From positions 228,435 to 292,434 of the forward strand of contig CP070802.1 of the NCBI GenBank assembly GCA_020343595.1: a stretch of 64,000 nucleotides of DNA. Direction: 5' to 3'. This stretch comes from a candidate division WOR-3 bacterium (GTDB taxonomy: Bacteria; Hydrothermota; Tepidihabitantia; SM23-42). Under the pieces are notes generated by a model. It made no database searches. It was given only the letters and a program-made list of their open reading frames with translations, and was not told the DNA's origin. Below, piece by piece: positions 2,910 to 63,551 of the stretch. The position numbers and the translations under genes are program-made. The stretch's first letter is position 1. Every line of letters begins with the position of its first letter.

Positions 2910-3515
2910 TTACTTGATGTACCAACTTGCCAACTTGAAGAAATTCTCGAGTATCAACCGGCCCGCCGGGTGCTCTTCGTCAAATCTTTCCGGGTGAAAC
3001 TGCACCCCATAGATGGGTAACTTCACACTTTTCATGACCTCGATCCTGCAATTCGGAGAGGTGGCAAGTAGTTCGAAATCAAATGGCAAATCGACCACCA
3101 TTTCTTCGTGTGATTCAAGTACCAAAAACTTCTCTGGAAGACCTTCGAAAAGCTCATTATCACTCATTCGCTCTACCATATAGTAACCTTCCACCTTCGT
3201 GTCCATACCGGCAACATCTGCTCCAAAAGCCAGAGACATAAGCTGATGACCAAAACATATCCCAAGCATCGGCTTTTCAGTAGCCCTGATGAAATCCACT
3301 TCGTTGGCGTAGGTATCCATTATGCCGGGCTCAGCAAGTTTGCGCTGCGAACCGGAAAGGACGATCACATCGTAGAGTTTGAATTCTTCCCCAGGAGGGA
3401 TTGCAGAATAATCCTTGATCTCCACTGTGTGAACCGTTATATCCTTCAGAACATTGTACAGCTTCTCGATCTGCGGCGAATTGGGCAAGTAGTTGTCAAT
3501 TATCAACGTTCTCAT
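2910..3515 (-). CDS. Class I glutamine amidotransferase domain protein
   Basis: 201 aa. Has the GICFGHQL catalytic Cys motif and a GVQFHPE His motif. Confidence 0.7.
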   Translation of the reverse strand: MRTLIIDNYLPNSPQIEKLYNVLKDITVHTVEIKDYSAIPPGEEFKLYDVIVLSGSQRKLAEPGIMDTYANEVDFIRATEKPMLGICFGHQLMSLAFGADVAGMDTKVEGYYMVERMSDNELFEGLPEKFLVLESHEEMVVDLPFDFELLATSPNCRIEVMKSVKLPIYGVQFHPERFDEEHPAGRLILENFFKLASWYIK

Positions 3516-4548
3516 CGATCACCTCGAAGAGGGCTTCAACGAGTTTGTCCTCTTTCACTCGTCGTATCTCCTTACCCTTAGCGAAAACGGCACCGACCCC
3601 TTTACCACATGCAATCCCGAAATCAGCCTCACGAGCTTCACCAGGTCCATTAACGACACAACCCATAACAGCAACCTTCATAAAAGGATCATATTTCTGC
3701 AATCGCTTCTCAACGTTTCGCGCTATGCGTTCCAGATCCACGTCACATCGACCACACATCGGGCAGCTAATCAATATTGGTCCTCTTTGCCGTATTCCAA
3801 GTGCACTTAGTATTGCGTAAGCAGCTACAACTTCGTATACCGGGTCGGCGGTCAAAGAAACCCTTATTGTATCACCAATGCCAGAATAAAGAATAATACC
3901 CAATCCCACAGCGCTCTTAACGGCTCCGGATAATGGCAATCCAGCCTCCGTGATCCCTATGTGCAGAGGAAAATCAAATTCCTCATTCAGTATTTTATAA
4001 ACTTCTATGGTCTGACGCACATCAACTCCTTTTGCCGAAAGGACGATCTGGTCGAAATCATTTTCCCGGAATATGGCCGTTGCCACTCTTACCGAGTCGA
4101 CGATGGCATCGACACCAGGATGTCGATATTTCTGCAACACTTCCTTGGGCAGTGAACCCGAATTGACGCCGATTCTTATTGGAACATCATTCAATCTTGC
4201 TTGTCTGATGATCTCTTCGACTCTCCAAACATCACCGATGTTGCCTGGGTTTATTCTTATCTTATCGGCCCCGGCTTTGATCGCACCCAGTGCCAAACGG
4301 TAGTCAAAATGTATATCCGCGATCACAGGTATACTCACCGATGCTTTTATCCGCCTTAATGCTGCAACATCATCACGATTAACAACTGCACAACGAACCA
4401 ATTCACAACCAGCCCTTTGGAGACGTCTGATCTGGCGAACGGTTCCAGCGACATCTGCCGTCTTAGTCTTGGTCATCGACTGTACAACCACTGGATGTCC
4501 ACCTCCGATCCGGAAATCTCCAATACGCACGACTCTCTTCTGTTTCAC
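3496..4548 (-). CDS. ispG: 4-hydroxy-3-methylbut-2-enyl diphosphate synthase IspG (GcpE)
   Basis: 350 aa. Conserved IspG segments: IADIHFDYRLAL, INPGNIG, and CPMCGRC / VMGCVVNGPGE cluster ligands. Confidence 0.9.
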   Translation of the reverse strand: MKQKRVVRIGDFRIGGGHPVVVQSMTKTKTADVAGTVRQIRRLQRAGCELVRCAVVNRDDVAALRRIKASVSIPVIADIHFDYRLALGAIKAGADKIRINPGNIGDVWRVEEIIRQARLNDVPIRIGVNSGSLPKEVLQKYRHPGVDAIVDSVRVATAIFRENDFDQIVLSAKGVDVRQTIEVYKILNEEFDFPLHIGITEAGLPLSGAVKSAVGLGIILYSGIGDTIRVSLTADPVYEVVAAYAILSALGIRQRGPILISCPMCGRCDVDLERIARNVEKRLQKYDPFMKVAVMGCVVNGPGEAREADFGIACGKGVGAVFAKGKEIRRVKEDKLVEALFEVIDENVDN

Positions 4549-16097: not shown

Positions 16098-16802
16098 TCA
16101 ATTCAATAACCTGCAATCACCAGCAATGATATGCTCTATGGCATAGTCGGCACGCATTATGATCAATCCCCCCTGGTGGTCTATATCAAGGACTTTGCCA
16201 ACAACCAACCTGCCCGGCAGTTCAATGCTCACATCACGACCGCGCATAAGTGTATATTCACGCCATTTTGAGAGCAGCGCATCAACTTCTTCATTCTTCA
16301 GCAGACCGTAGTACGTATCAAGAGACTTGCACAGGTTATGGTAGAAGCTCTGAGGGTCAAGATGCTTCTTTGTTTCGATGAATATCGAACTTGCCTTATC
16401 ACGAAGATCATCGGGGAACTGCCGGACATTAAGATTGATGCCCACACCCAGAATGACATTCTCGTCGACGATTTCAGGTAGAATACCCGCAATTTTCCTG
16501 TCGTTGAGTAGTATATCGTTAGGCCATTTTATTTTTGTATCGATGCCGTATCCGGAAAAGGTCTCACAGATCGCAACACCTGCGATGAGCGAGACCAGAC
16601 AGTTCTGATGATGTTTTAGTAAAACCGACATCCACAGGCCGCCCTCGGGCGAATACCACGAACGACCCCTGCTTCCTCGACCAGAGCTCTGTACATCAGC
16701 AACAACTACCGTGCCCTCAGGAGCGTTTTCCAGTATTTGCTTTATGTAGTCGTTTGTAGATCCGATTTCGTTCAATCTGTAGTATTTGCTCCCAACGATC
16801 AT
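16098..16802 (-). CDS. birA: Biotin--[acetyl-CoA-carboxylase] ligase (no N-terminal HTH)
   Basis: 234 aa. BirA catalytic motif QSSGRGSRGRSWYSPEGGLWMSVLL. Confidence 0.8.
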   Translation of the reverse strand: MIVGSKYYRLNEIGSTNDYIKQILENAPEGTVVVADVQSSGRGSRGRSWYSPEGGLWMSVLLKHHQNCLVSLIAGVAICETFSGYGIDTKIKWPNDILLNDRKIAGILPEIVDENVILGVGINLNVRQFPDDLRDKASSIFIETKKHLDPQSFYHNLCKSLDTYYGLLKNEEVDALLSKWREYTLMRGRDVSIELPGRLVVGKVLDIDHQGGLIIMRADYAIEHIIAGDCRLLN

Positions 16803-21888: not shown

Positions 21889-22218
21889 TTATCTGTCCTC
21901 GCAGCCTGTATGGTCGTTGGTCATTTGTCTGCGGCCCTTAAACTTGTTCCACGCCTGGGCTAGCCTGTAGAGCTGACGTGCAGATATATCATAGGTATTC
22001 AGCAATTCATTGCATAAATCGACTTCAATCCTGTATATATCCTTGACATGCTCGAGACTCACTATCGTCTCGTTACACTCAGCCATCGCATCATCAATGT
22101 ACTTCTGAAATCCAGATCTCTGGTGTTTCTTGGCAAAACCCTCAGCGATCAAGCGCGGTATCGCTTTTGAAGATCTGCTGAGTTGGCTATTCAAATCGTA
22201 GCGCTCCTGGTCGGGCAA
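21889..22218 (-). CDS. Four-helix-bundle protein (the so-called 23S rRNA intervening-sequence protein family)
   Basis: 109 aa. LSRSSKAIPRLIAEGFAKK matches the conserved core of this family. Confidence 0.6.
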   Translation of the reverse strand: MPDQERYDLNSQLSRSSKAIPRLIAEGFAKKHQRSGFQKYIDDAMAECNETIVSLEHVKDIYRIEVDLCNELLNTYDISARQLYRLAQAWNKFKGRRQMTNDHTGCEDR

Positions 22219-22393: not shown

Positions 22394-22891
22394 TTATGGT
22401 GATTCGTCGATCTCCACGATCGACACAAATGCATCTACCTGTTCGCCTTCTTTGAAGTTGACACTCTTCACAATACCATCAACCGGCGAACGGAGTTCAT
22501 TCTGCATTTTCATGGCTTCGACGATCGCCACTGTATCACCGGGTTTAACCTTACTGCCGATCTTCACCGGCAGTTTGACAAGTAACCCCGGCATAGAAGA
22601 AGCAATGACATTGTCTTTTCGCTGTCCCGGCCCTTCTGAACCATATCGTGCACCGCTGCTCAACTCAAGAGTGTAGTATTCGCCTTCGAGCGAGATATAT
22701 ATTTTCTTTTTATCCCGCGCAAAAGGCATTCTGTAATTCTTGTTTTTTATCCTGAAGCTGATCGCGTTTTCGTGCATTGTCAATTCTCTAACCTTGAAAC
22801 GCCGGTCACCTATTGTCACGATTATTTCGTCTTCGCCCTTTTGGACATCAGCGGCATATGCTTTATTCAAACACAGAAAGTTATATTTCAT
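22394..22891 (-). CDS. Biotin carboxyl carrier protein: a stand-alone C-terminal piece of an acyl-CoA carboxylase alpha subunit
   Basis: 165 aa. Biotinyl domain with EAMKMQNEL, preceded by a BT-like linker region of about 90 aa. Confidence 0.75.
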   Translation of the reverse strand: MKYNFLCLNKAYAADVQKGEDEIIVTIGDRRFKVRELTMHENAISFRIKNKNYRMPFARDKKKIYISLEGEYYTLELSSGARYGSEGPGQRKDNVIASSMPGLLVKLPVKIGSKVKPGDTVAIVEAMKMQNELRSPVDGIVKSVNFKEGEQVDAFVSIVEIDESP

Positions 22892-22897
22892 ATGGCG

Positions 22898-24409
22898 TTA
22901 TTCATGAATATCTCTGCACACTTCCCAATCTCCGATCTCATGCCAAGGTGTTGTCGACCGTAATATTTCATCTTCCTGCCGCAGGATTCTCTCCCCGTTC
23001 CTTCCTGTCATGGCTATCAGTGAAGCCGCGGTTATTGCGGCATGAATACTGTCATCGGACATACGCAGATCCGCCTCATTATCATCAATGAAATGAGTAT
23101 GGTAATCGCCCGCAGTGAATTTTGGTGTCAACATGATACGTCTCAGGTAACCAAGATTTGTTTTGATCCCCAGTATCACATAGTAACTCAGTGCATCGGA
23201 CATTCGATTAATCGCCGACTCGCGGTCCTCTGCCCATGCTATCAACTTCGACAATATCGGATCATAGTGCGGTGGAACATCCCATCCCTGGAATATTCCA
23301 GAATCAATCCTCACACCCGGACCGTTCGGTTCATCCAGATATAGTATCTTCCCGGGAGAAGGCAAGAAACCGTTCTCTGGATCTTCAGCATAAATCCTCG
23401 CTTCGATCGCATGGCCGCGCTGCTCGACCGCGTCTTGCTGAAAACCTATCTCCACCCCAGCTGCGATCATTATTTGCTGGCGGACAAGGTCAATTCCCGT
23501 CACCATCTCGGTAATTGGATGTTCAACCTGCACCCGGGCATTCACTTCAAGAAAGTAAAAATTGTGGGTCTCATCGAGCAGGAATTCTACGGTACCAGCG
23601 TTGGTATAATCCGATGCCTCGATGACCCTCTTCGCTGCTTCGCCCATACGCTGACGCAAATCCACATCGAGCGCAGTCGAAGGAGTTTCCTCTACTATCT
23701 TTTGATGGCGTCTCTGTATCGAGCATTCCCGCTCGAACAGATGCACCGTATTTCCATGTTTGTCCCTCAACACCTGAAATTCGATGTGACGTGGCCTTTC
23801 GATATATTTCTCGAGATAGACAGTCTCATCGCCGAATGCGCTCTTTGCCTCTCGCTGCCCGGCTTCAATGCTGTTCTGAAGCTCTTTCTCGGTGCGAACG
23901 ATACGCATGCCTTTGCCACCACCGCCCATCGAAGCTTTGACAATCACCGGGTATCCCACCTCAGCGGCAATATTCTTGAAGGAAGCATAGCCCTTTTTTG
24001 CAATTTGCATACCCGGTATAATTGGAACACCCACCTTCGTAACGGTATTGCGCGACGCAACCTTATCGCCGACCAGTGCAAGTGCCTTCGAGCCGGGACC
24101 TATAAAGATAATACCACTATCTTCGCATGCCCTTGCAAATTTTGGATTCTCGGCAAGAAAGCCATATCCTGGGTGTATCGCGTCTGCATTTGAGGCTTTC
24201 GCCAGATCGATAATCGCTTGGATATTCAAATAACTGGACTGAGGAGGAGGATCCCCCACGAGATACGTTTCTTCCATATACCGCAGATGCTTGGAATTCT
24301 CATCCGCACTTGAGTATATTCCAACCGGGCAGATACCGAGTTCCCTGCATGCCCTGGCTACCCTGATAGCAATTTCGCCACGATTCGCAATTAATATCTT
24401 CTTAAACAT
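22898..24409 (-). CDS. Biotin carboxylase subunit of an acyl-CoA carboxylase (candidate methylcrotonyl-CoA carboxylase alpha, split form)
   Basis: 503 aa. N-terminus KILIANRGEIAIRV, an ATP-grasp domain, and GGGGKGMRIV. Confidence 0.9.
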   Translation of the reverse strand: MFKKILIANRGEIAIRVARACRELGICPVGIYSSADENSKHLRYMEETYLVGDPPPQSSYLNIQAIIDLAKASNADAIHPGYGFLAENPKFARACEDSGIIFIGPGSKALALVGDKVASRNTVTKVGVPIIPGMQIAKKGYASFKNIAAEVGYPVIVKASMGGGGKGMRIVRTEKELQNSIEAGQREAKSAFGDETVYLEKYIERPRHIEFQVLRDKHGNTVHLFERECSIQRRHQKIVEETPSTALDVDLRQRMGEAAKRVIEASDYTNAGTVEFLLDETHNFYFLEVNARVQVEHPITEMVTGIDLVRQQIMIAAGVEIGFQQDAVEQRGHAIEARIYAEDPENGFLPSPGKILYLDEPNGPGVRIDSGIFQGWDVPPHYDPILSKLIAWAEDRESAINRMSDALSYYVILGIKTNLGYLRRIMLTPKFTAGDYHTHFIDDNEADLRMSDDSIHAAITAASLIAMTGRNGERILRQEDEILRSTTPWHEIGDWEVCRDIHE

Positions 24410-24486
24410 CTTTTCTCCGAAAAAAATAGATTCAAACGGATTCGATCAGATTCAACGGAATAACGATCAGTTTGCATCGACATTCA

Positions 24487-25287
24487 TCAGCCTGAATCTG
24501 AATCCCATCTGGGTTTACGTTTTTCCAAAAATGCTGCCATGCCTTCCTGGCCTTCCTCAGAGACGCGTATTTGCGCAATGACCTCGGCCGTATACCTCTT
24601 TACCTCATCGTATGACATTTGAGGAACCTTGCGCAGCAGTTCCTTACACGTTGTTATGGCGCTTGGTCCGCTGGAGATTAGTTGCGTCAGGTATTGATCG
24701 ACCAGCGCATCAAGCGTCTCGAGTTCGGTCACGGCATTGACCAGTCCGGCGGTCAGGGCTTTTTCTGCAGAAAGCCTTTCTCCGGTCAGAAAAAATTCAC
24801 GGCATTTGCCCTCGCCACATTTCTTCACGACATACGGCGATATACAGGCCGGTATTAAACCGAGTTTGACCTCACTGAAACTAAACTTGGCACTGCGCGC
24901 TGCAACTGCAATATCGCAGACAGCTACAAGCCCTGTGCCACCACCTATCGCCGCGCCATTGACTCGAGCGATTGTCGGTTTTGGACACGAATATGCCTTG
25001 TATAGCATATCAGACAGTTCAAGTGATTCTTTCAAGTTGTCGTCATATGAATAGTCCTTGACTCGACGCATCCAATTCAAGTCAGCACCGGCACAGAATG
25101 ACTTACCCTCGCCGGTCAGGACGACTGCACGCACCTCTGTTTGTGCCGCCAGACGGTCAAAGGTCTCTGCCAGTTCGCCGATCATTACGTCATCGAAGGC
25201 ATTATGCACTTCGGGACGGTTGAATGTCACCACAGCAACATTCTCTTTCACTTCATAGCGTATTGTTTTGAATTCTTTTTCCTGCAT
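24487..25287 (-). CDS. Enoyl-CoA hydratase/isomerase family protein (candidate methylglutaconyl-CoA hydratase)
   Basis: 266 aa crotonase fold (GEGKSFCAGADL, VNGAAIGGG). The function is inferred from the adjacent carboxylase genes. Confidence 0.7.
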   Translation of the reverse strand: MQEKEFKTIRYEVKENVAVVTFNRPEVHNAFDDVMIGELAETFDRLAAQTEVRAVVLTGEGKSFCAGADLNWMRRVKDYSYDDNLKESLELSDMLYKAYSCPKPTIARVNGAAIGGGTGLVAVCDIAVAARSAKFSFSEVKLGLIPACISPYVVKKCGEGKCREFFLTGERLSAEKALTAGLVNAVTELETLDALVDQYLTQLISSGPSAITTCKELLRKVPQMSYDEVKRYTAEVIAQIRVSEEGQEGMAAFLEKRKPRWDSDSG

Positions 25288-25324
25288 GACAAGTACCTCT
25301 AGATATCAAACAAAGAGCGTATTA

Positions 25325-25672
25325 CTAACCGGCTTCTCCCTTTGTCTTGGTAATTACAGGTTCTATCAGCAATACCCAGGCCGGTTTTTTGGCGCGTGAA
25401 CGATGCCTAGTGCCCTTCTTCACGAGGAATCCTTCGTTCTCCCTGATCTCGGTGGAACCCTTCTCCGTATCAATGTATATCTTACCTTTTAGCACGAAGA
25501 AAAACTCGTCCTCATTGAGATGCATGTGCCATTCATACGCACCGTCGATCTTTGCGACTCGTAGTGCGGTATCATGGACATGCAGTATATCCCTGGGTTG
25601 CCAAGGCTCCTTGATCTCCTTGATGATCTTCCTTAGACTGATCTTCGCCACACTACCCCCTTTTTGCAACAA
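25325..25672 (-). CDS. Cupin domain protein
   Basis: 115 aa with a cupin metal-binding motif (HVHDTALRV...WHMHLNEDEFFFVLKG). Confidence 0.6.
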   Translation of the reverse strand: MLQKGGSVAKISLRKIIKEIKEPWQPRDILHVHDTALRVAKIDGAYEWHMHLNEDEFFFVLKGKIYIDTEKGSTEIRENEGFLVKKGTRHRSRAKKPAWVLLIEPVITKTKGEAG

Positions 25673-25766
25673 ACATCCAAAAATCCAAAATTACTAAATA
25701 CCTAAACCTGATGGGTTTTTAGGTATATAGGAATTTAGGCATTTAGGTATTTGGAAATTCATCGGA
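25673..25766. repeat. Intergenic TTTAGGYA / TRCCTAAA repeat element (family A), copy 1
   Basis: CTAAATACCTAAACC on the left. TTTTTAGGTATATAGGAATTTAGGCATTTAGGTATTTGG on the right, as tandem 8 bp units. Lies upstream of the cupin gene. Confidence 0.6.
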
Positions 25767-27374
25767 TTACATTCTGAATACGCCGAATTTGTGGTCGGGA
25801 ATCGGCGCATTAAGCGACATAGAAATTGCCAGGCCCAATATTACTCTCGTGTCTTTGGGGTCGATTATACCATCATCCCAGAGCCGAGCCGTCGAATAGT
25901 ATGCACTCGATTCATAATCGTACTTTGCCAATATCGGTTTTCTGATCTCCTCGATCTCCTTTTTCGTTGGTTTCCTTCCTTCTTTTATCAACGACCGGAC
26001 TTTAATATCGGTCAACACGCCTGCCGCCTGCTCACCGCCCATGACACAAATCCTTGCTGTAGGCCACATCCAGAGCAACCGAGGATCATATGCACGACCG
26101 CACATGCCGTAGTTACCGGCACCGTAGGAATTACCGATGATAATCGTGAACTTCGGCACCTGGGCATTTGCCACAGCATGTATCAATTTCGCGCCATCCT
26201 TGGCAATACCCCCATGCTCATAACGCTTACCGACAATAAACCCTGTGATATTCTGAAGAAAGAGAATCGGAATTTTCCTAACCGCGCACATCGAGACGAA
26301 ATGCGCTCCCTTCTGTGAAGACTCAGAAAATAACACACCGTTGTTGGCAAGAATACCGACCGGATATCCCATGATCCTGGCGAAGCCGCATACCAAAGTT
26401 GTGCCGTAGAGTGATTTGAATTCGTGAAACTCGCTGCCGTCAACGATGCGAGCTATTATCTCACGCACATCAAACGGCTTCCTCAGATCGCTCGGGATAA
26501 TACCGTAAAGCTCAGAAGGATCGTAAGCAGGTTCCACCGGTCTTGAGCGGTCGAGAGGATATTTCTCTGATTTCGCCAGGTTTTCCATGATGTTTCTCGT
26601 CATTTCCAGAGCATGCTCATCATTGACCGCGAAGTGATCGGCAACTCCTGAGATACGGCAGTGAACATCGGCGCCTCCCAAATCCTCTTCGCTGACGACT
26701 TCTCCCGTTGCCGCCTTTACCAGAGGCGGTCCGCCAATGTATATCGTGCCTACGCCCTTGACGATCACCACCTCGTCGCTCATCGCAGGCTGGTAGGCAC
26801 CGCCGGCCGTGCAGAAACCAAGCACTACTGAAATCTGAGGTATGTTATCGGCCGACATACGTGCTTGATTGAAGAATATTCTTCCGAAGTGATATCTATC
26901 GGGGAACGTACCGACCTGGAGCGGAAGGAATATCCCACCCGAATCAACGAGGTAGATGCACGGCAGTCGATTCTCAATGGCGATCTCCTGGGCGCGGATA
27001 TGCTTCTTGATCGTCTCAGGAATATAGGTACCGCCTTTCACTGTCGCATCATGCGCAACAACCATCACCTCACGGTCATGGACAACGCCAATACCAGTGA
27101 TGATCGCAGCTGAGGGATGTTCATTCTTATACATATCCCATGCCGCAAGGTTGCTCAGTTCGAGAAACGGAGTATTAGGGTCGAATAACTGCTTGAGCCT
27201 GTCACGGACAAACAACTTACCCCGTTCTGCATGCTTTTTGTGCATATAATCAGGACCGCCTTCTCTCACCTTTACGAGACGCTCCTTCAGAGTGCGTACA
27301 GCTTCTTCCATAACAGATCTATTCTTCTTAAAATCTGCGCTCTGCGTACTTATCTTCGACTCAATTTTATACAT
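25767..27374 (-). CDS. Acyl-CoA carboxylase carboxyltransferase subunit (methylcrotonyl-CoA carboxylase beta-like)
   Basis: 535 aa. The N-terminus, with [28 protein letters not shown], resembles MCCase beta / geranyl-CoA carboxylase beta. Two crotonase-like carboxyltransferase domains. Confidence 0.8.
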
Positions 27375-27516
27375 AAATCACTTAAAGGATCCGGGTTACG
27401 CTGGACGGTTACGAAGCCCGTTTCGTTCGACGGTTACGTCTGCACATCAGTCACAACGTTACCGCGATCCGACAAACGATACGGGCATCGTTGCCTTAAA
27501 CCGTGCAACGTTGCCT
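27375..27516. repeat. GC-rich intergenic repeat element (family B), copy 1
   Basis: Shares ACGAAGCCCGTTtCGT.cGACGG, ACGGTTACG and ACGGGCATCGTTGCC blocks with 33394..33534. Contains small hairpins (AACGAT-ACGGGC-ATCGTT). Lies in the 5' region of the carboxyltransferase gene. Confidence 0.6.
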
Positions 27517-27903
27517 TCATATTAGTATTGCCTTATATCCGTAGCATATGATGCCAGTGTGTCCTTCGGTGTATAGTTTTCGGAAAACAAATTTCACTTT
27601 CTTACCGATCTCGAGTTCGTTCGGTTTGCAATCAACAACCTGTGTCGTGACTCTGACGCCGTTATCAGATTCAACAATGGCCACGCTATAGGGCACTTCC
27701 GTCTCAAAATCCTTTGGAGCAACTCGGATTGTCGTGAAGGTCAGTATCTTTCCATAGTCTGAAACCTTTTCTCCCTTGAAGTCTCGGGATCCGCAATTGC
27801 AGACCATACGCGGCGGAAAAGCAACGCGGCCACAGCCACTGCATTTTGCAGCCTCAAGTCGATATCTCTGAGGCATTTCTCTATGATATCTTGGTGATGG
27901 CAT
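27517..27903 (-). CDS. DUF35 Zn-ribbon / OB-fold protein (partner of archaeal-type thiolase and HMG-CoA synthase)
   Basis: 128 aa. Zn ribbon CSGCGRVAFPPRMVCNCGS followed by an OB fold. It lies directly upstream of the thiolase and HMGCS genes. Confidence 0.75.
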   Translation of the reverse strand: MPSPRYHREMPQRYRLEAAKCSGCGRVAFPPRMVCNCGSRDFKGEKVSDYGKILTFTTIRVAPKDFETEVPYSVAIVESDNGVRVTTQVVDCKPNELEIGKKVKFVFRKLYTEGHTGIICYGYKAILI

Positions 27904-28037
27904 TAAACCTCCTAAACAAAGAATAAATTCCTAAATCCGTCCGAGACGGACCAAAATACCTAAATTCCTAAACCTGCTTTAGGCATTTGTAAAAACGTGA
28001 TGTACTGATTCCTGTATCCACTAACCATTTAGGTATT
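27904..28037. repeat. Family A repeat element, copy 2 (with hairpin core)
   Basis: AAATTCCTAAATCC-GTCCGAGACGGAC-CAAAATACCTAAATTCCTAAACC, then CTTTAGGCATTTG ... CATTTAGGTATTTTAGGCATTTG. Lies upstream of the DUF35 gene. Confidence 0.65.
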
Positions 28038-29186
28038 TTAGGCATTTGTAAATATATGTACTACCGACGAGGCACCTGAACCACCCATATTCTGTGTTAA
28101 ACCGATTTTTGCGTTCTTGACCTGACGTTTTTCAGCCTCGCCGCGCAGTTGTTCAACGACTTCCACAACCTGTGCGACTCCAGTAGCACCGACCGGATGT
28201 CCTTTCGATTTCAGCCCGCCCGATGGATTAACCGGAATTTTGCCAGTCAACGAAGTATGGCCTTGTTCAGTGAACAAACCGCCCTTTCCTTTGTCAACAA
28301 AACCGAGTTCCTCGATAATGCATATCTCTGCGATCGAGAAGCAATCATGTACTTCGGCAAGGTCTATGTCCGACGGTTTGAGACCAGCCATCTTGTATGC
28401 CGCTTCAGCCGATTGTTTGACAGATCCGAGTGTGGTAATATCCTCACGCGCATGGAGAGCAAGCGTATCTGTGGCCGCGCCAGTGCCAATCACTTTCACG
28501 GCGGGCTTATTCACTTTCTTAGCGATGTCCATCGATGCCAGAAGCACACACGCCGCACCGTCTGAAACAGGAGAACTGTCGAGTACGGTAAGCGGGTCTG
28601 CCACCATCGTTGCCTTGATGACTTGGTCTACCGTAACTTCACCCCTGAACTGTGCGTTCGGATTGAGCGCACCGTTGTGGTGATTTTTTACCGAGACCAT
28701 AGCAAGCTGCTGCCTCGTTGTACCATATTTATGCATATGTGCCCTGGCGATCATTGCATACAAACCCGGGAACGTTACACCGTGGTAAACTTCATATTCT
28801 TGGTCAGCGGCTGTAGCCAGCGCGTATGTGACATCTGCACCATCGGTCATTTTTTCCACACCGCCAACCAGTACTACATCACTATGACCGGAAGCCACCT
28901 CAAATAGACCAAGGCGGAATGCCATGCCGCCCGAGCAGCAAGCTGATTCAACTCTCACCGCAGGTATTTGAGGTGTTCCGAGATAATCTGCCATCAATGC
29001 CCCGACGTGTTCCTGCCCCACGAAGAGACCAGGAGTCATAGAACCAACATACATCGATGAAATACGGTCAACACCTGCATCATCGATAGCTTTCAGCGCC
29101 GCTTCTACGAAAATATCTCTTAGAGACTTTTTCCATAGTTCACCGAATTTCGTCATACCACAACCAATTACCGCAACCTCACGCAT
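28038..29186 (-). CDS. Acetyl-CoA C-acetyltransferase (thiolase, archaeal type)
   Basis: 382 aa. N-terminus [13 protein letters not shown], and C-terminal GHPVGATG and HDCFS motifs. Confidence 0.85.
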
Positions 29187-29220
29187 ATCTTACCCCCTTT
29201 GAACACTGAATTCAGTGTAA

Positions 29221-30267
29221 TCAGTCATTCATTATGATCTTACCACGGAATTTGGCATAATGACCGTAGTCCAAGTAGATACGATTCGTTTCCAGCATAT
29301 CTCTCACCTTGTCAGCTTTGTCCCGTACTTCATCTATTCTTTCAGTAACCTTGAAAATAAACGCATCACTACCGGCACCAGAACCGAATGACACAAGAAG
29401 GATCATGTCGCCTTTCTTTGCAATATCGAGCGTTGCCGAAAAGCCTGTTGGTGAAGAACCTGAATATGTATTACCCATGAGTGGGACTACCCAACCCGGT
29501 TCGAGTTGTTCCCGCTTGAAACCAAGTTTCTTGCCGACGGTCAAAGGGAATTTTCCATTTGGCATGTGAAAGACGGCGTAATTGAAATCAGAGGCTTTTA
29601 ATCCGCTCTTCTTTAGGATCCCTTCACCCGCACCCAATATATGCTTGAAATATGCAGGCTGTCCAGTGAATCGTCCACCGTGCAAGGGATAGAAAGCTCC
29701 CTCGCGGCGCCAGAAATCAGGCGTATCGGTCGTATAAGAGTAAGTGTGCAGCAGTTCAGCAACGATCTTGTCTTTACCGAATATGAAGGCTGACCCGCCT
29801 GCGGATGCGCTGAACTCAAGAGCATCGCCCGGGGCGCCTTGCGATGTATCAGCACCAATCGCCAGTGCATACTTCATCTGATCTGCGCTGACAAGGCTGA
29901 AGGCTACGAACATAGCCTCGGTACCTGCCTTGCAGGCAAATTCATAGTCAGCAATATGCACCTCCGGTACAACACCAAGGGCTTCGGCGACGACCGTACC
30001 GGACGGCTTCACTGCGTATGGATGAGACTCCGAACCAATATATACTGCGCCGATATCCGCTGGATCGATCTCAGCCCGACGCAGTGCATTTCTGGCAGCC
30101 TCTACCGATATCGTGATCGTATCTTCGTCAAGAGCCGGGACTGTTTTCTCCTTCAGCAATAGACCTCTGCGTACTGCTTCTGCATCACGACCCCATTGCT
30201 TGGCGATCTCATCAACCTTTATTCTGTACCTTGGCAGGTAAGAACCATATCCAACAATACCAACCAT
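29221..30267 (-). CDS. Hydroxymethylglutaryl-CoA synthase (archaeal type)
   Basis: About 348 aa. Starts [22 protein letters not shown], which matches the archaeal HMGCS N-terminus. ATG at 30267 with a GGAAGGAGG RBS. The track ORF extends to a TTG at 30303. Confidence 0.8.
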
Positions 30268-30371
30268 CAAACCTCCTTCCAAAGACAAAGACCTAAATTC
30301 CAAAAGTCCTAAACACCTAAACGAAGCGACTACAGTCTTTTAGGCATTTAGGCATCTAGGTATTTAGGCAT
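30268..30371. repeat. Family A repeat element, copy 3
   Basis: GACCTAAATTCCAAAAGTCCTAAACACCTAAACG ... TTTTAGGCATTTAGGCATCTAGGTATTTAGGCATTT. Lies upstream of the HMG-CoA synthase gene. Confidence 0.6.
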
Positions 30372-33534: not shown

Positions 33535-34830
33535 CTATATAAGTTTCCTCTTCTTTGCTGCTTCTTCCAGTTCGGCTCGGAAGTTCGGGTGAGCGATCTC
33601 GATCAACGATTTTGCCCTTTCATTCAGATTCTTACCGTGCAAGTTCGCGATACCGTGTTCGGTGACAATGTAATGGACATCAGCTCGCGTCGTAACCACT
33701 CCTGCTCCGACCTGCAGGGTAGGCACGATCTTAGAAATGGTATCATTCTTTGTTGAAGAAGGAAGTGCAATGATCGGCTTGCCACCCTTAGACTGTGCAG
33801 CACCACGTATGAAGTCCACCTGCCCCCCGAATCCAGAATAGATACGCGTCCCGATCGAATCAGAACATACCTGTCCAGTAAGATCCACTTCAATTGCCGA
33901 GTTTATCGCGATCATCTTCTCATTCTGACCTACTATGAACGGATGGTTAGTATAATTCGTTGGATGTGTTTCGAATATCGGGTTGTTATCAATGAAATCA
34001 TAGAGATCCTTGGTGCCAAAATAGAAAGTAGCAATCACCTTGCCAGGATGCAGTGTCTTCTTCGAACCCGTAATCACACCAGCATTTATCGCTTCAATGA
34101 GGCCATCGGAAACCATCTCGGTGTGAATACCTAGATCCCTCTTGCTGAACATTGCCTTCAGCGCGGCGTTGGGAATGCCACCTATACCGAGTTGGAGAGT
34201 GCAACCGTCATCGACAAGACTCGCTATGTATTCGCCTATCTTTTTCTCTACTTCTGTAAACGGCGGTATGTTCAGTTCAGGAAGTTCGTCAGATACCTCT
34301 ACGAGCTTTGCAAACCTCGACACGTGAAGAAAGGAATCACCAAGAGTTCTCGGCATGCGATCATTTACCTGGGCAACGACTATCTTCGCTGTCTCAGCCG
34401 CGGCCTTCGACGCAAGACATTCAACACCCAGACTCACAAAACCGTGTTCGTCTGGCGGCGATACATGCAGAAAAGCAACATCGAGCGGCAATAGATCCTT
34501 GTAGAAGAGCGTCGGTATCTCATACAAGAACACCGGTGTGTAATCCGCCCGGCCGTCATTGACCGCAGTACGGTCGGCCGGGCCAACGAAGAGCGAATTG
34601 TGCCTGAAATGCGGCTCCATACCTGGTTTGGAGAGAGGGTCGTCACCGAGTAGAAGCACGTGAGTTATCTCAACATTACTAAGTTTATCCTTCCGCTGCG
34701 CCAGTGCTTCGGTCAACCGAAAGGGTGTAGCAGCATTGCCACTAACATAGACGCGGTCCTTACTTTTCACGACAGATACGGCTTCCTCGAAGGAGCACAA
34801 TTTGGCTTTATAGTCGTCGAACCAGCTCAT
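33535..34830 (-). CDS. Acetyl-CoA hydrolase/transferase family CoA-transferase (4-hydroxybutyrate/succinyl-CoA:acetate type)
   Basis: 431 aa. Has both the N- and C-terminal domains of the AcH/Cat family. Confidence 0.75.
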   Translation of the reverse strand: MSWFDDYKAKLCSFEEAVSVVKSKDRVYVSGNAATPFRLTEALAQRKDKLSNVEITHVLLLGDDPLSKPGMEPHFRHNSLFVGPADRTAVNDGRADYTPVFLYEIPTLFYKDLLPLDVAFLHVSPPDEHGFVSLGVECLASKAAAETAKIVVAQVNDRMPRTLGDSFLHVSRFAKLVEVSDELPELNIPPFTEVEKKIGEYIASLVDDGCTLQLGIGGIPNAALKAMFSKRDLGIHTEMVSDGLIEAINAGVITGSKKTLHPGKVIATFYFGTKDLYDFIDNNPIFETHPTNYTNHPFIVGQNEKMIAINSAIEVDLTGQVCSDSIGTRIYSGFGGQVDFIRGAAQSKGGKPIIALPSSTKNDTISKIVPTLQVGAGVVTTRADVHYIVTEHGIANLHGKNLNERAKSLIEIAHPNFRAELEEAAKKRKLI

Positions 34831-37501: not shown

Positions 37502-37531
37502 GATAACCCACCAAAAACCCACATAGCATCC

Positions 37532-38023: not shown

Positions 38024-38024
38024 A

Positions 38025-39524: not shown

Positions 39525-39657
39525 TATTACTCTTTGGTCATTTGATTATGGCTATTTGTCATGGCAGCCGGTATTGTCACACGTTGTTGGTCTATGTAAC
39601 CACATCATATGACAAAGTACCAAACAGGCAACCACGCCAAACAACATAAAACTAGTT

Positions 39658-41205: not shown

Positions 41206-41311
41206 TAATCCTCCCACTTCACTGAATCACCGTATACTACAGCACCGGTGATCATAAGACTACTCGACTGCAAGACAGCAAAAACCATCCAGGTTGATAA
41301 CACCATTATCA

Positions 41312-60503: not shown

Positions 60504-60505
60504 GG

Positions 60506-61480
60506 CTACTTTTTCACTTCCAGTATCTTGCTCTTCAATACCGGCAAGACCTTGAAAAGATCGTCGACGATACCGTAGTCGGCTTCGTTGAAGATTGGTG
60601 CATTCGGATCCTTGTTGATGGCGATTATTGTATCGGAATTCTTCATCCCCGCGATGTGTTGAAATGCCCCCGAAATACCGATCGCAATGTAAAGCTTCGG
60701 CTTGACGGTCTTTCCCGAAGATCCAACTTGCCGGTCCTTGGGCAGCCAGTTCGCATCAACTATCGGCCGTGAGCACGCAACGACGCCACCGACAGCACTG
60801 GCAAAATCCTCGACCATGGACAGATTCGCTTGCTCCTTTATACCACGGCCAATACCGACGACCACATCGGCTTTAGTGATATCAACATCCCCAACCGCTG
60901 CTTCGACATATTCTATGAATCTCCTGTACTCGGGCTGGCTCGTGAGCGGTGCATCTATTTTCTCGATCTCGGCAGAGAGGCCACCGTCTTCTGCCGGACA
61001 AGTGCCGCTCCGCAATGTCAGCATATAGTGAGGACCCTGGGCCAGTCTCAGATGGGCATCCATCTTACCATCATACAGCTGACGTGTCACCCTGATACCT
61101 CCATCCACGACTTCCACTCCTATACAGTCGGTGGTGAAAGGAATACCGAGTTGGGTCGCAAGCGATGGGCAGAAATCTATGCCGAACGCGGTATTACCAA
61201 TAATGGTCAGAAAAGGGCTCTCCTTCTTGACGACGGCAGAGATCGCCTCCTGATATACGTCGCCGTTGAAATCCTTGAAAACTTCATGGTCAGCAACGAC
61301 AAGACGATGAACGTGTTTCTTGATATCTTCCTGGAGGTCATCGGTATTATGACCCAGCAACACGCCAATCAATTTCGCATTGGTCTTTTCTGCCAGTTTT
61401 CTCCCGAACGTCATCAATTCGTACGTGATGTCTCTGACTACTCCCTGACGGTGTTCAACCACTGTTAGAATATCAGCCAT
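60506..61480 (-). CDS. etfA: Electron transfer flavoprotein alpha subunit
   Basis: 324 aa. ETF alpha FAD-binding C-terminus (LYIAIGISGAFQHIAGMKNSDTIIAINKD). Confidence 0.85.
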   Translation of the reverse strand: MADILTVVEHRQGVVRDITYELMTFGRKLAEKTNAKLIGVLLGHNTDDLQEDIKKHVHRLVVADHEVFKDFNGDVYQEAISAVVKKESPFLTIIGNTAFGIDFCPSLATQLGIPFTTDCIGVEVVDGGIRVTRQLYDGKMDAHLRLAQGPHYMLTLRSGTCPAEDGGLSAEIEKIDAPLTSQPEYRRFIEYVEAAVGDVDITKADVVVGIGRGIKEQANLSMVEDFASAVGGVVACSRPIVDANWLPKDRQVGSSGKTVKPKLYIAIGISGAFQHIAGMKNSDTIIAINKDPNAPIFNEADYGIVDDLFKVLPVLKSKILEVKK

Positions 61481-61490
61481 TATTCCCCCC

Positions 61491-62261
61491 TTAGATCAGT
61501 CCCTTTTCTTTGATTATACCTGCGGTTCTCGTCGCAACTTCATCAGTGTTACCGCTCATAATCTCGGCTCTCTTTCCAACGGGTGGTATGAAAAGTTCTT
61601 CGAGTGTGCTGTTGGTCTTGGCTTCAAGAGCAATGTCGCTCTTACCCACAACCTTGATCTCTTTTGCAGCCGCTCTGCGTATCGCGATCAACGACGCATA
61701 ACGTGGTTCATTGATGCCGGTTTGCACGGCAAAGACTGCCGGTAATGACATCTGGAGATGCTCGATCAAACCGCCCTCAAGTTCACGATTTACATCAGCC
61801 TTGCCGTCAGTTATGTCCACCTTGCTCACCAAAGTCGCGTGAGGCACGCCGAGCATTTCAGCAAGTACCGGACCCACCTGGTAATAACTATCGTCGGTCG
61901 CCACGCAGCCGGTGAATATCGCGTCGAATTTTGTGTCTTTTATCACCTCTTTTAGCAATGCGGCGGTCTTGAATCCATCCAGATCCCCGAAATCCTCAGC
62001 CTTTATCCTGATTGCACTGTCAGCTCCCTTTGCCAGAGCAATACGAAGGGTATCTTCAGCATCAGCTATACCGAGGGAAACCGCAGTTATGGTCCCACCG
62101 AATTTCTCTTTGAGAAGGATCGCCGCTTCGAGAGCATATGTATCTGCCTCGTTCATATCGAACGTCAAACGATCCCTGACTATATCCTTGCCCGTTGCAT
62201 CAACCTTGACCTCGGCCTCAGCGGTCTGGGCAACTCTCTTAACGCAGACGATCAGGTCCAA
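61491..62261 (-). CDS. etfB: Electron transfer flavoprotein beta subunit
   Basis: 256 aa. ETF beta N-terminus MDLIVCVKRV, and conserved AVSLG and DAIFTG segments. Confidence 0.85.
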   Translation of the reverse strand: MDLIVCVKRVAQTAEAEVKVDATGKDIVRDRLTFDMNEADTYALEAAILLKEKFGGTITAVSLGIADAEDTLRIALAKGADSAIRIKAEDFGDLDGFKTAALLKEVIKDTKFDAIFTGCVATDDSYYQVGPVLAEMLGVPHATLVSKVDITDGKADVNRELEGGLIEHLQMSLPAVFAVQTGINEPRYASLIAIRRAAAKEIKVVGKSDIALEAKTNSTLEELFIPPVGKRAEIMSGNTDEVATRTAGIIKEKGLI

Positions 62262-62405
62262 AACAACCTCCTTCCTAAAATCAAATTCCTAAATCCGCCT
62301 GATGCGGCCAAAATACCTAAACTACCTAAACATGTAAGCAGCCACCATAAATGTCTCAACAACTTACCGCCCTTTAGGTATTTAGGATTTTTGGTATTTA
62401 GTTAT
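62262..62405. repeat. Family A repeat element, copy 4 (with hairpin core)
   Basis: AAATTCCTAAATCC-GCCTGATGCGGC-CAAAATACCTAAACTACCTAAAC ... CTTTAGGTATTTAGGATTTTTGGTATTTAG. About 60 nt are collinear with copy 2. Lies upstream of etfB. Confidence 0.65.
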
Positions 62406-63551
62406 TTATCTCGTAAGTTCTCTCGCGATAACGATCTTCTGGACTTCAGATGTACCCTCATATAACTCCAGGATCTTGGCGTCGCGGTACAGTCTTTCCA
62501 CTGCGTAGTCCTTTGAATATCCATAGCCGCCGTGTATTTGAACCGCCTTCCTGACCACATCAACGGCAATATCAGACGCATAGTATTTTGACATCGCCGA
62601 TTCCTTGGAGAACCTCTTCATACCTTTGTCTTTGCAGTAACCTGCATAATGGACTAAGAGACGTGCCGCCTGGATCTGAGTTGCCATTTCAGCCAGCATT
62701 GACTGGATCATTTCGAAGTTACATATCGGTTGTCCGAATGCTTTACGCTCCTTCGAATACTTCACTGCTTCATCCAGAGCAGCCTGAGCAATACCGACTG
62801 CCTGCGCGCCTATATCGATACGCGAAACATCGAGTGTGTTCATACATATCTTGAAACCATCGCCTTCATTAGCAAGGAGATTCTCTTTCGGTACTTTGAC
62901 ATCCTCGAAGATCAATTCGCAATTTGCCGTCGCCCTAATGCCCATCAGGTCTTCATGATTCCCGAGACTGAAGCCGGGTGTGTCGCGCTCGACCACAAAG
63001 GCGCTGATCCCCTTGTGTTTCAGTTCCCTGTTGGTATAGGCAAATACAACAAATGTCCCGGCCTCACCGCCGTTGGTGATGAAACGTTTTGTCCCGTTAA
63101 GGATGTAGTGGTCGCCTTCCAACCTTGCCGTCGATTCCATGGCGGCGACATCCGACCCCGCATTAGGTTCGGTAAGACCAAACGCACCGACTCTTTCACC
63201 ACTGCACAATGGCGGTAGATACTTCTTTTTCTGTTCTTCGTTACCGAACTGTGCTATCGGATATGTAGTCAACGAATTGTTCACGGCAACAATCACGCCG
63301 GTCGAGGCACAAGCACGGGAAATCTCCTCGATTGCGATAGCCAGTGACACAAAATCGAATCCGGAACCGCCGTATTGCTCTGGGACAATCACACCGAGTA
63401 AACCCAACTGCGCCATCTTTTTTATAGTAGCCCACGGGAACTCCCTGGATTTATCAATTTCCGGTGCCAGCGGTGCCAATTCACTCTGCGCGAACTTGCG
63501 TACTTCTTCCTGAAGCATCTTCTGATCATTGGTTAAATCAAAATTCATCAA
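62406..63551 (-). CDS. Acyl-CoA dehydrogenase (butyryl-CoA dehydrogenase-like)
   Basis: 381 aa. ACAD N-, middle and C-domains. C-terminal YEGTSEVQKIVIAR, and catalytic Glu region. Confidence 0.85.
   Translation of the reverse strand: MMNFDLTNDQKMLQEEVRKFAQSELAPLAPEIDKSREFPWATIKKMAQLGLLGVIVPEQYGGSGFDFVSLAIAIEEISRACASTGVIVAVNNSLTTYPIAQFGNEEQKKKYLPPLCSGERVGAFGLTEPNAGSDVAAMESTARLEGDHYILNGTKRFITNGGEAGTFVVFAYTNRELKHKGISAFVVERDTPGFSLGNHEDLMGIRATANCELIFEDVKVPKENLLANEGDGFKICMNTLDVSRIDIGAQAVGIAQAALDEAVKYSKERKAFGQPICNFEMIQSMLAEMATQIQAARLLVHYAGYCKDKGMKRFSKESAMSKYYASDIAVDVVRKAVQIHGGYGYSKDYAVERLYRDAKILELYEGTSEVQKIVIARELTR

Follow-up and report, generated by a model that had tools for sequence, protein, structure and literature searches.

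An uncultured sediment bacterium of the candidate division WOR-3 exhibits, within the 64-kb stretch of DNA analysed here (the window), a cluster of eight genes. It opens with a trio of adjacent genes for an HMG-CoA synthase (HMGCS), a thiolase and a DUF35 protein, followed downstream by a carboxyltransferase (CT) of the methylcrotonyl-CoA carboxylase (MCC) beta clade, a small cupin, a LiuC/AtuE-like crotonase and a split MCC alpha, the latter in the order biotin carboxylase (BC), then a BT-domain fragment with the biotin carboxyl carrier protein (BCCP). We propose that the eight genes form a module interconverting 3-methylcrotonyl-CoA plus CO2 and three acetyl-CoA via HMG-CoA, most likely in the catabolic direction; we give this reading a probability of about 0.45. 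All eight genes, listed before by a sequence-only reading of this DNA, were recovered where that reading had placed them, on the minus strand (22394-30267; ORF list, Pfam and NCBIfam).

Table 1. Genes of the cluster and other features of the window
Feature	Length (aa)	Position	Strand	Basis
Archaeal-type HMG-CoA synthase	348	29221..30267	-	TIGR00748, 6esq_I match, catalytic tetrad
Archaeal-type acetoacetyl-CoA thiolase	382	28038..29186	-	PRK06064, 6esq_A match, motifs
DUF35 scaffold protein, zinc ribbon + OB fold	128	27517..27903	-	Pfam zf-ChsH2 + OB_ChsH2_C
MCC-beta-type carboxyltransferase	535	25767..27374	-	Bit scores against known CTs
Small predicted metal-binding cupin		25325..25672	-	Pfam Cupin_2; start uncertain
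Crotonase, candidate 3-methylglutaconyl-CoA hydratase	266	24487..25287	-	Pfam ECH_1
Biotin carboxylase subunit, ATP-grasp	503	22898..24409	-	Biotin_carb_N, CPSase_L_D2, Biotin_carb_C
BT-domain fragment + biotin carboxyl carrier protein	165	22394..22891	-	Pfam Biotin_lipoyl
IspG/GcpE, MEP isoprenoid pathway		3496..4548	-	Pfam GcpE, 463 bits
Biotin protein ligase		16098..16802	-	BPL_LplA_LipB + BPL_C
CoA-transferase that could activate acetoacetate		33535-34830		
Electron-transfer flavoprotein (ETF) alpha + beta		60506..62261	-	ETF, ETF_alpha domains
Short-chain acyl-CoA dehydrogenase, possibly an isovaleryl-CoA dehydrogenase		62406..63551	-	Acyl-CoA_dh domains

Judged from sequence, the trio is a true archaeal-type set, as had been claimed: among solved structures, each member is matched best by its counterpart chain in the Methanothermococcus complex (PDB 6ESQ), and the catalytic residues are intact. 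The HMGCS scores 542 bits against the NCBIfam model TIGR00748 (HMG_CoA_syn_Arc; cut-off 353) and 463 bits, with 62% identity, against 6esq_I, and keeps the catalytic tetrad E80/C112/H234/N266, which is invariant in 81 of 81 sequences. The sequence-only reading had started this gene at a TTG (30303); the ATG at 30267 is more likely, since it is preceded by GGAGG and yields a protein of 348 aa, as in all homologues. The thiolase scores 545 bits against PRK06064 (cut-off 420) and 553 bits against NF053570, the latter under its cut-off of 600, and its top PDB match is 6esq_A (388 bits). Its HDxF and GHP (GHx) motifs are kept in 73 of 73 relatives, and the cysteine-containing CxS motif is seen in the alignment with 6esq_A. 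The DUF35 protein best matches 6esq_E (92 bits); all four zinc-ribbon cysteines are present and conserved. Unlike the Methanothermococcus complex, the WOR-3 trio has a bacterial host, no mevalonate genes nearby and a MEP gene in its window; it is embedded with an MCC and a hydratase, and the direction that we propose is opposite to the characterised one. A bacterial HMGS/ACAT/DUF35 tripartite architecture is also exhibited by the Friedel-Crafts acyltransferases PhlABC and MucAB, which give weaker matches (PDB 5m3k, 9skh). Neither the E-C-H-N tetrad nor the HDxF motif survives in those complexes (PMC12960953), whereas the WOR-3 proteins retain both features and resemble the archaeal enzymes much more closely.

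The CT belongs to the MCC-beta clade, scoring 736 bits against Pseudomonas aeruginosa MCC beta (LiuB, 3u9r_B) and 703 against human MCCB, versus 477 against geranyl-CoA carboxylase beta and at most 280 against propionyl-CoA carboxylase (PCC) betas; its close homologues are named methylcrotonoyl-CoA carboxylase by NCBI. The BC (PRK08591, 630 bits; cut-off 597) is 53% identical to a second BC of the window (38025-39524). The BCCP piece carries the biotinylation motif EAMKM. Its residues 48-164 align with positions 539-653 of P. aeruginosa MCC alpha (3u9s_A), a span made up of the last part of the BT domain and the BCCP; the earlier description as a split MCC alpha is thus accurate. In a Calditrichaeota homologue, the BCCP piece gives a weak Pfam match to ACCA_BT. 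The top NCBIfam models for the crotonase are PRK07468 and PRK05674 (gamma-carboxygeranoyl-CoA hydratase), both under their cut-offs, and its PDB matches include AtuE (4zu2, 134 bits) and Myxococcus xanthus LiuC (5jbx, 114 bits); it shares just 34% identity with the other crotonase of the window. The cupin exhibits the motif HxH..E..H, its homologues are 106-109 aa long, and in 12 loci its gene separates the CT from the crotonase. Cupin homologues of 61-67% identity also stand alone in unrelated contexts.

The arrangement of trio and MCC is not due to chance: of 80 species representatives, 19 have an MCC-beta-type gene no more than 10 kb away from the trio. These 19 comprise WOR-3, TA06, Stahlbacteria, Cloacimonadota, Zixibacteria, a Clostridia-labelled MAG and unclassified MAGs, so that the genetic coupling of the trio with MCC and a methylglutaconyl-CoA-hydratase-like crotonase, noted earlier for this window, extends over several phyla. 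In the closest clade (WOR-3/TA06/Stahlbacteria/Cloacimonadota) the linkage holds for 13 of 13 informative loci, and in the single Clostridia-labelled MAG five genes form a compact operon that is complete in itself. Locus L028 exhibits the run HMGCS-thiolase-DUF35-CT-crotonase with gaps of 9, -1, 2 and 6 nt, flanked by mreBCD/PBP2/rodA. A dedicated ATP-grasp BC and a BCCP also belong to the cluster in three other loci (L018, L061, L081). Acyl-CoA dehydrogenases stand beside the trio in four (L011, L068, L081, L037); in L068, IcmF and two such dehydrogenases adjoin the CT, crotonase and trio. Several observations count against our reading: the trio is not beside MCC in about 60 of the 80 species, BC and BCCP are not adjacent in L028 and several WOR-3 loci, and close CT homologues of Calditrichaeota occur in CT-BC-BCCP operons without the trio. 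AtuA follows the trio in about 22 of the roughly 60 species without the linkage. There is thus one further context, if not more, in which the trio may play a different role.

A functional link of the trio to MCC and hydratase through HMG-CoA is well supported. Breakdown is a plausible direction, favoured by the ATP-dependent carboxylase, by acyl-CoA dehydrogenases as repeated partners and by the catabolic neighbourhood, and the synthase complex would therefore run in reverse. The direction of flux is inferred, as are the substrate specificities, the formation of a complex and the energetic rationale. The module would constitute the end of anaerobic leucine/isovalerate breakdown. A three-subunit MCC (CT, BC, BT-BCCP) would spend one ATP on carboxylating 3-methylcrotonyl-CoA, the crotonase would hydrate 3-methylglutaconyl-CoA to HMG-CoA, and the reversed HMGCS/thiolase/DUF35 complex would replace HMG-CoA lyase. 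The latter would first convert HMG-CoA and CoA to acetyl-CoA and enzyme-channelled acetoacetyl-CoA, whose strongly exergonic thiolysis to two acetyl-CoA would pull the cleavage of HMG-CoA, the net reaction being HMG-CoA + 2 CoA -> 3 acetyl-CoA. Thiolytic cleavage of acetoacetyl-CoA yields about -25 kJ/mol; we estimate the net reaction to be near equilibrium under standard conditions (about 0 to +15 kJ/mol), and it becomes exergonic when the CoA/acetyl-CoA ratio is high. Two properties of HMG-CoA synthase count against reversal: the enzyme is regarded as practically irreversible, and the reverse reaction needs a free carboxylate to acylate the active-site cysteine. Reversal is not known for this complex.

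The surroundings in the window are catabolic, with methionine-gamma-lyase-like enzymes, alanine dehydrogenase, PCC/MCM/epimerase, a CoA-transferase, peptidases, an ECH/HCDH/thiolase set and the acyl-CoA dehydrogenase/ETF genes. Against a catabolic reading, the candidate dehydrogenases are Bcd/SCAD-like rather than IVD-like: the short-chain enzyme best matches Clostridium difficile Bcd (5ol2_C, 445 bits; 303-324 bits for IVDs), and Bcd-type enzymes can act reductively. This would suit a module working in the biosynthetic direction, comparable to the alternative isovaleryl-CoA pathway of myxobacteria that the sequence-only reading had offered as its second option. The trio would then make HMG-CoA from acetyl-CoA, in keeping with the known function of the 6ESQ complex, the crotonase would dehydrate it, the MCC-type enzyme, reversed or as a biotin-dependent decarboxylase, would decarboxylate 3-methylglutaconyl-CoA, and a Bcd-like dehydrogenase with ETF would reduce 3-methylcrotonyl-CoA to isovaleryl-CoA, which would go into leucine or iso-branched fatty acids. 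The FCB group commonly has iso-C15 fatty acids, and in L028 and several WOR-3 loci only the CT, with or without the crotonase, stands beside the trio, with no BC at that place. The myxobacterial route (MvaS, LiuC, AibA/AibB, AibC) likewise uses an HMG-CoA synthase and a 3-methylglutaconyl-CoA hydratase/dehydratase outside the mevalonate pathway. However, its synthase is an MvaS of bacterial type, its decarboxylase is the CoA-transferase-like AibA/B and its reductase is AibC, of the MDR type, and none of the three occurs in the WOR-3 cluster; Pfam scans found no glutaconate-CoA-transferase-like AibA/B and no MDR-type AibC in the whole window. The cluster has instead a conserved, dedicated ATP-grasp BC, a type of enzyme that runs as a carboxylase at cellular ATP/ADP ratios. 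Given also the catabolic neighbours and the crotonase's distant similarity to M. xanthus LiuC, we consider synthesis a fairly unlikely alternative to leucine breakdown.

Pfam scans of the window detected no HMGL-like domain on coding-strand ORFs of at least 100 aa, and a six-frame tblastn search of it with a validated lyase probe gave no match, which bears out the assertion that the window has no HMG-CoA lyase. The validated probe also found none in the roughly 1.3 Mb that surround the trio in 83 loci, and in all 80 species the 10 kb to either side of the trio are free of a lyase. A lyase or a reductase could be encoded elsewhere in the genome, which counts against our reading. With a lyase elsewhere, leucine would be degraded conventionally, with the trio running forward or its thiolase alone in use, and co-location would reflect shared acetoacetyl-CoA and HMG-CoA, as in a ketogenesis-like HMG-CoA cycle. 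The lyase searches cover 64 kb here and, in relatives, the 10 kb that flank the trio at either end, the CoA-transferase of Table 1 could serve acetoacetate, and the anaerobe Desulfococcus multivorans uses a canonical HmgL for isovalerate (PMC5109826). Such a scheme nevertheless leaves unexplained the tight operon of HMGCS and DUF35 with MCC beta and hydratase in several phyla, none of the 19 trio-MCC clusters has a lyase beside it, and a cycle of synthase and lyase would merely hydrolyse acetoacetyl-CoA, a waste for an energy-limited anaerobe. We therefore hold it to be improbable. Canonical liu clusters include liuE. The Pseudomonas liuABCDE cluster shares with the WOR-3 one an MCC-beta-clade CT, BC and BCCP functions and a LiuC/AtuE-like crotonase; it differs in that the WOR-3 cluster has the trio in place of LiuE (HMG-CoA lyase), an MCC alpha in two proteins (BC and BT-BCCP), no dehydrogenase of the IVD type and an inserted cupin.

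Archaea enter the mevalonate pathway through the trio, and leucine (through MCC and hydratase) and acetyl-CoA (through the trio) might both feed HMG-CoA into that pathway for isoprenoid lipids, a scheme already put forward for some archaea. A routing of leucine to mevalonate has been proposed for Calditenuis (PMC12979851), and WOR-3 is among the bacterial groups covered by a survey of phospholipid-biosynthesis genes (PMC6431249). Pfam scans found neither HMGR nor GHMP-kinase (mevalonate-kinase-type) genes in the window, so that with HMGL-like proteins included no alternative HMG-CoA consumer of the kinds sought was seen there, and a weak motif scan of the 83 loci found no HMGR or GHMP kinase near the trio. 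Cloacimonetes, which carry an orthologous cluster, are reported to have a complete MEP pathway, and the only mevalonate-pathway genes named for their MAGs are ACAT (thiolase) and HMGCS (PMC7852524). Because of this report and of IspG in the window, a mevalonate role for the trio is unlikely, and we assign very little probability to joint feeding of isoprenoid synthesis.

If leucine breakdown through the reversed complex is correct, it would yield one thioester more (about 1 ATP by substrate-level phosphorylation) than the route through lyase and CoA-transferase, that is, one energy-rich bond saved per leucine. A conceptual analogue exists: citrate synthase is reportedly reversed in vivo in Desulfurella and Thermosulfidibacter, according to work of Mall et al. 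and of Nunoura et al. from 2018. There too (Desulfurella acetivorans, Thermosulfidibacter takaii) a Claisen-type synthase with thioester hydrolysis is reversed in anaerobes and saves an ATP-dependent or thioester-wasting lyase step. The enzyme family and the pathway are different, and reversal was shown there by experiment, whereas in WOR-3 it is gene context alone that suggests it.

All genes of the window lie on the minus strand. The sequence-only reading had listed among them an archaeal-type HMG-CoA synthase (HMGCS), a thiolase and a DUF35 protein (together "the trio") in one run with a methylcrotonyl-CoA carboxylase (MCC), a cupin and a hydratase candidate, and each element of that list was recovered with Pfam and NCBIfam (see table). 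The HMGCS start it had placed at TTG 30303 is less likely than the ATG at 30267, which lies behind a GGAGG and gives a 348-aa protein, the length of all homologues. The window belongs to a candidate division WOR-3 bacterium, and its HMGCS has the closest database relative, with 96% identity, in a WOR-3 MAG. The number of sites returned by a promoter and terminator scan of the cluster was not above that for shuffled sequence.

Genes of the trio-carboxylase cluster and of its surroundings
Feature	Position	Strand	Remark
HMG-CoA synthase	29221-30267	minus	first in transcription order
Thiolase	28038-29186	minus	second
DUF35 protein	27517-27903	minus	third; zinc ribbon and OB fold
Carboxyltransferase (CT)	25767-27374	minus	fourth
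Cupin	25325-25672	minus	fifth; HxH..E..H metal motif
Crotonase	24487-25287	minus	sixth
Biotin carboxylase (BC)	22898-24409	minus	seventh
Biotin carrier (BCCP)	22394-22891	minus	eighth; EAMKM motif
Two Cys/Met-type PLP enzymes	within window	minus	one methionine-gamma-lyase-like
Glyoxalase-fold protein	within window	minus	epimerase candidate
CoA-transferase	within window	minus	butyryl-CoA:acetate type
Alanine dehydrogenase	within window	minus	
Two methylmalonyl-CoA-mutase paralogues	within window	minus	with B12 domain and MeaB
Crotonase/3-hydroxyacyl-CoA dehydrogenase/thiolase set	within window	minus	
Biotin ligase; corrinoid adenosyltransferase	within window	minus	
Several peptidases	within window	minus	

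The adjacent HMGCS, thiolase and DUF35 genes each encode a protein whose best PDB match is the corresponding chain of the thiolase/HMGCS/DUF35 complex of Methanothermococcus thermolithotrophicus (6ESQ): chain I for HMGCS (463 bits, 62% identity), chain A for the thiolase (388 bits) and chain E for the DUF35 protein (92 bits). The HMGCS passes the archaeal equivalog TIGR00748 (542 bits, cut-off 353). In the alignment its Glu-Cys-His-Asn tetrad (E80/C112/H234/N266) corresponds to E82/C114/H238/N270 of the archaeal enzyme, and this tetrad is invariant across 81 sequences. In contrast, the PhlA/MucA Friedel-Crafts homologues have lost it (PMC12960953). The thiolase exhibits the CxS, HDxF and GHx motifs when aligned to 6esq_A, the histidine and aspartate of HDxF and the histidine of GHP being kept in 73/73 sequences. 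It scores 545 bits against the PRK06064 subfamily (above the cut-off of 420) and 553 bits against the NF053570 equivalog (under the cut-off of 600). The four cysteines of the DUF35 protein are retained. The trio thus matches the archaeal complex in gene adjacency, tetrad and thiolase motifs, and from the HMGCS identity and the high-scoring 6ESQ matches we infer that its products may assemble into a complex that shares one CoA-binding site and channels acetoacetyl-CoA.

The carboxyltransferase groups in the MCC-beta clade, with scores of 736 bits to PaMCC beta and 703 bits to human MCCB, versus 477 bits for GCC beta, no more than 280 for PCC betas and 150 for GcdA. The NCBI name for its close homologues is methylcrotonoyl-CoA carboxylase, and 3-methylcrotonyl-CoA is its predicted substrate, judged by clade membership. 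The cluster also encodes a biotin carboxylase of the ATP-grasp type and a carrier with a lysine (AMKM) that can be biotinylated. Whereas MCC alpha is typically one BC-BT-BCCP polypeptide, it is divided here between two proteins, a BC of 503 aa and a BT-fragment/BCCP of 165 aa; the latter aligns with the last part of the BT domain and with the BCCP of P. aeruginosa MCC alpha. Relatives show the same CT/BC/BCCP split.

Two further observations concern the carboxylases. The top PDB relatives of the CT (9tps/9tqc/9tqg, 750 bits) bear the PDB name "Propionyl CoA carboxylase beta subunit" and outscore the bona fide MCC betas. The partner chain G is a 677-aa fused alpha. Judged by sequence, this enzyme looks like a member of the MCC clade. 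The window also contains a second three-subunit biotin carboxylase (37532-41217) composed of BCCP, BC and a PCC/Mmd-type CT (TIGR01117, 799 bits). Between this BC and the one of the cluster the identity is 53%; two CTs within 20 kb thus each have a BC/BCCP pair of their own.

The top NCBIfam models of the crotonase are PRK07468 and gamma-carboxygeranoyl-CoA hydratase (LiuC/AtuE-type), and its top PDB matches include no characterised methylglutaconyl-CoA hydratase. Since both models score under their cut-offs, the crotonase is described here as a putative methylglutaconyl-CoA hydratase. The cupin is kept between CT and crotonase in 12 loci, and this position, together with the metal motif, suggested a hidden HMG-CoA lyase. 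We set this idea aside because homologues of 61-67% identity stand alone in unrelated neighbourhoods (Aminicenantes-labelled and other contigs) and several trio-MCC clusters have no cupin, which is probably not a core enzyme. The sole acyl-CoA dehydrogenase (ACAD) of the window (62406-63551) is 32 kb from the cluster. Its assignment as an isovaleryl-CoA dehydrogenase is unsupported: it is Bcd/SCAD/AcrC-like, with 445 bits to Bcd/SCAD-type enzymes versus 303-324 bits to isovaleryl-CoA dehydrogenases. The trio-adjacent ACADs of relatives are likewise Bcd/SCAD-like, and such candidate dehydrogenases could serve in either direction.

A scan of relatives with one genome per species yielded 80 loci (HMGCS identity 68-93%), and the HMGCS-thiolase-DUF35 order is contiguous in nearly all of those long enough to show the trio. 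In 19/80 loci an MCC-beta-type gene is found no more than 10 kb from the trio. The WOR-3/TA06/Stahlbacteria/Cloacimonadota clade accounts for 13 of the 19 (all of its informative loci); the others come from one Zixibacteria MAG, one Clostridia-labelled MAG and several unclassified MAGs. Gene order varies among the 19. In the Clostridia-labelled MAG (L028:10001-14993) the order HMGCS-thiolase-DUF35-MCC beta-crotonase shows gaps of 9, -1, 2 and 6 nt. These five genes, with mreBCD, PBP2 and rodA in the flanks and no adjacent BC/BCCP, have cell-shape genes on one side and a convergent gene on the other and thus constitute a self-contained operon, which makes this locus the most clear-cut example. 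ACADs recur next to the trio in four loci (L011, L037, L068 and L081). One of them (L068:2-11774) carries divergent operons, with an ACAD, a fused IcmF-type mutase (1084 aa; B12 domain, MeaB and mutase), MCC beta and crotonase on one strand and an ACAD followed by the trio on the other, which points to one joint island for the catabolism of branched-chain acyl-CoA. The recurrence of trio-MCC/hydratase neighbourhoods points to a link via a common metabolite, and the connection of the two modules through shared HMG-CoA is well supported.

Other gene neighbours of the trio were observed in the same scan. In about 22 Ignavibacteria/Melioribacter/Bacteroidota species the gene directly after the trio belongs to the AtuA family (PF07287, 503 bits), and an AtuA_ferredoxin-like gene comes next (loci L020-L027, L032-L034, L036, L038-L040, L043, L049, L051, L053, L054, L058 and L069; for instance L020:12815-14182 and L021:14173-14508), whereas the window has no AtuA. 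Liu/Atu-type chemistry acting on an analogue of HMG-CoA is thus also the source of the trio's second common partner. Two loci, one from an Aquificales-labelled MAG (L064:1505-5786 and L066:3-5571), have a crotonase and a divergent CT directly upstream of the trio, L066 also carrying a BC fragment. This CT is nearest to Thermotoga/Pyrococcus PCC/Mmd-type enzymes (398 bits versus about 304-338 for MCC-type) and was left out of the MCC linkage count; these loci may represent an independent carboxylase-hydratase-trio arrangement. Small genes for a "23S rRNA-intervening sequence protein" (PF05635; window 21889-22218, L012:12408-12824, L018:12311-12688, L011:7006-7419) sit in or beside the clusters at differing places, in Cloacimonadota between thiolase and DUF35, and look like mobile or selfish insertions.

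The sequence-only reading had also stated that the window encodes no HMG-CoA lyase, and this holds: no HMGL-like Pfam match was obtained in the scanned ORFs, and tblastn with a lyase probe gave no match for the window or for any of 83 related loci. The probe was a human HMG-CoA lyase sequence, validated by a PDB search in which it scored 655 bits against 2CW6 and 383 bits against the lyase of P. aeruginosa. The known Liu cluster contains the lyase LiuE, whereas the present cluster has the trio in that place. A conventional leucine pathway with its lyase encoded elsewhere in the genome is a possible reading, and Desulfococcus multivorans, a sequenced anaerobic isovalerate degrader, uses a canonical HMG-CoA lyase (PMC5109826). 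However, this reading leaves the presence of HMGCS and DUF35 in operons with MCC beta/hydratase unexplained. A contrast search was uninformative, as close CT homologues without the trio (Calditrichaeota and others) show CT-BC-BCCP only and no adjacent lyase.

The archaeal complex feeds the mevalonate pathway, and the trio might be expected to do the same. However, Pfam revealed no HMG-CoA reductase (HMGR) or GHMP-kinase domain, and no mevalonate kinase or other downstream gene, in the ORFs of the 64-kb window; a weak HMGR/GHMP motif scan, run with no positive control, found none near the trio in 83 loci. The window does encode IspG (GcpE) of the MEP pathway (3496-4548). Cloacimonetes MAGs, whose trio and MCC beta share 77-84% identity with the window's, are reported to have a complete MEP pathway, and the only mevalonate genes named for them are ACAT (thiolase) and HMGCS (PMC7852524). 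On these three grounds the mevalonate reading is disfavoured, and we reject it as the main explanation.

A myxobacterial-style biosynthetic route from HMG-CoA to isovaleryl-CoA is possible as well. That pathway uses AibA/AibB and AibC, but neither the Pfam families of a CoA-transferase-like decarboxylase (AibA/AibB) nor those of an MDR reductase (AibC) occur among the scanned window ORFs. It also conflicts with the dedicated biotin carboxylase, as an ATP-grasp biotin carboxylase at cellular ATP/ADP ratios drives carboxylation.

The most parsimonious reading left is the one proposed from the sequence at the outset, namely that MCC and the hydratase feed a trio running backwards; we give it a probability of roughly 45%. 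HMG-CoA supplied by MCC and hydratase would be converted by the HMGCS/thiolase/DUF35 complex according to HMG-CoA + 2 CoA -> 3 acetyl-CoA, the endergonic reverse synthase step being pulled by the exergonic thiolysis of channelled acetoacetyl-CoA. The yield would be 3 acetyl-CoA, versus 2 by the lyase/CoA-transferase route. We estimate the standard free energy of the overall reaction at roughly 0 to +15 kJ/mol. With 30 µM acetyl-CoA, 1 mM CoA and 0.1 mM HMG-CoA, the concentration term would by our estimate be about -20 kJ/mol, so that the reaction would become exergonic. A precedent for such a reversal is the citrate synthase of Desulfurella and Thermosulfidibacter. More tentatively, the trio may be a physiologically reversed, lyase-independent HMG-CoA thiolytic system in WOR-3, TA06, Stahlbacteria, Cloacimonadota and some other anaerobes.

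Anaerobic leucine/isovalerate oxidation is energetically marginal. The textbook route proceeds through MCC, hydratase, HMG-CoA lyase, CoA-transferase and thiolase, and since it spends the ATP of MCC and loses a thioester in re-activating acetoacetate, it offers about no gain over excreting isovalerate. A reversed complex would provide an oxidation route conserving one extra thioester, and with 3 rather than 2 acetyl-CoA the pathway would be worth running for energy-limited sediment or digester bacteria, a possible answer to how anaerobic isovalerate oxidation nets ATP. It would be the second natural "irreversible" Claisen synthase found to run backwards, after the reversed citrate synthase, and would imply that a channelling architecture discovered in archaea works both ways. 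It would also explain why many FCB-group and candidate-phylum bacteria with MEP have only the first two "mevalonate" genes, a pair that has been read in Cloacimonetes as part of isoprenoid synthesis (PMC7852524). The parts belong to known families (the archaeal trio, MCC with split alpha); what is unusual is their combination, with the trio replacing liuE in a Liu-like cluster, a bacterial host with a MEP gene and conservation across candidate phyla. Our literature searches found no description of a trio-MCC association or of a reversed HMGCS.

The window as a whole is a catabolic super-cluster. Its two mutase large-subunit paralogues (35951-37522 and 42733-44364) are 59% identical, and only the latter adjoins a B12-binding subunit (42221-42700) and MeaB (44374-45339). 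The former may act on methylmalonyl-CoA, isobutyryl-CoA or another acyl-CoA. The Bcd/AcrC-like ACAD lies together with ETF alpha/beta, an HdrD-like CCG protein and a multi-domain flavo-iron-sulfur oxidoreductase of 1110 aa (55976-63551). In acyl-CoA oxidation this group could serve as a module for electron confurcation or reverse electron transport. At the low-coordinate end, the window carries a tyrosine recombinase/phage-integrase-family gene (789-1679).
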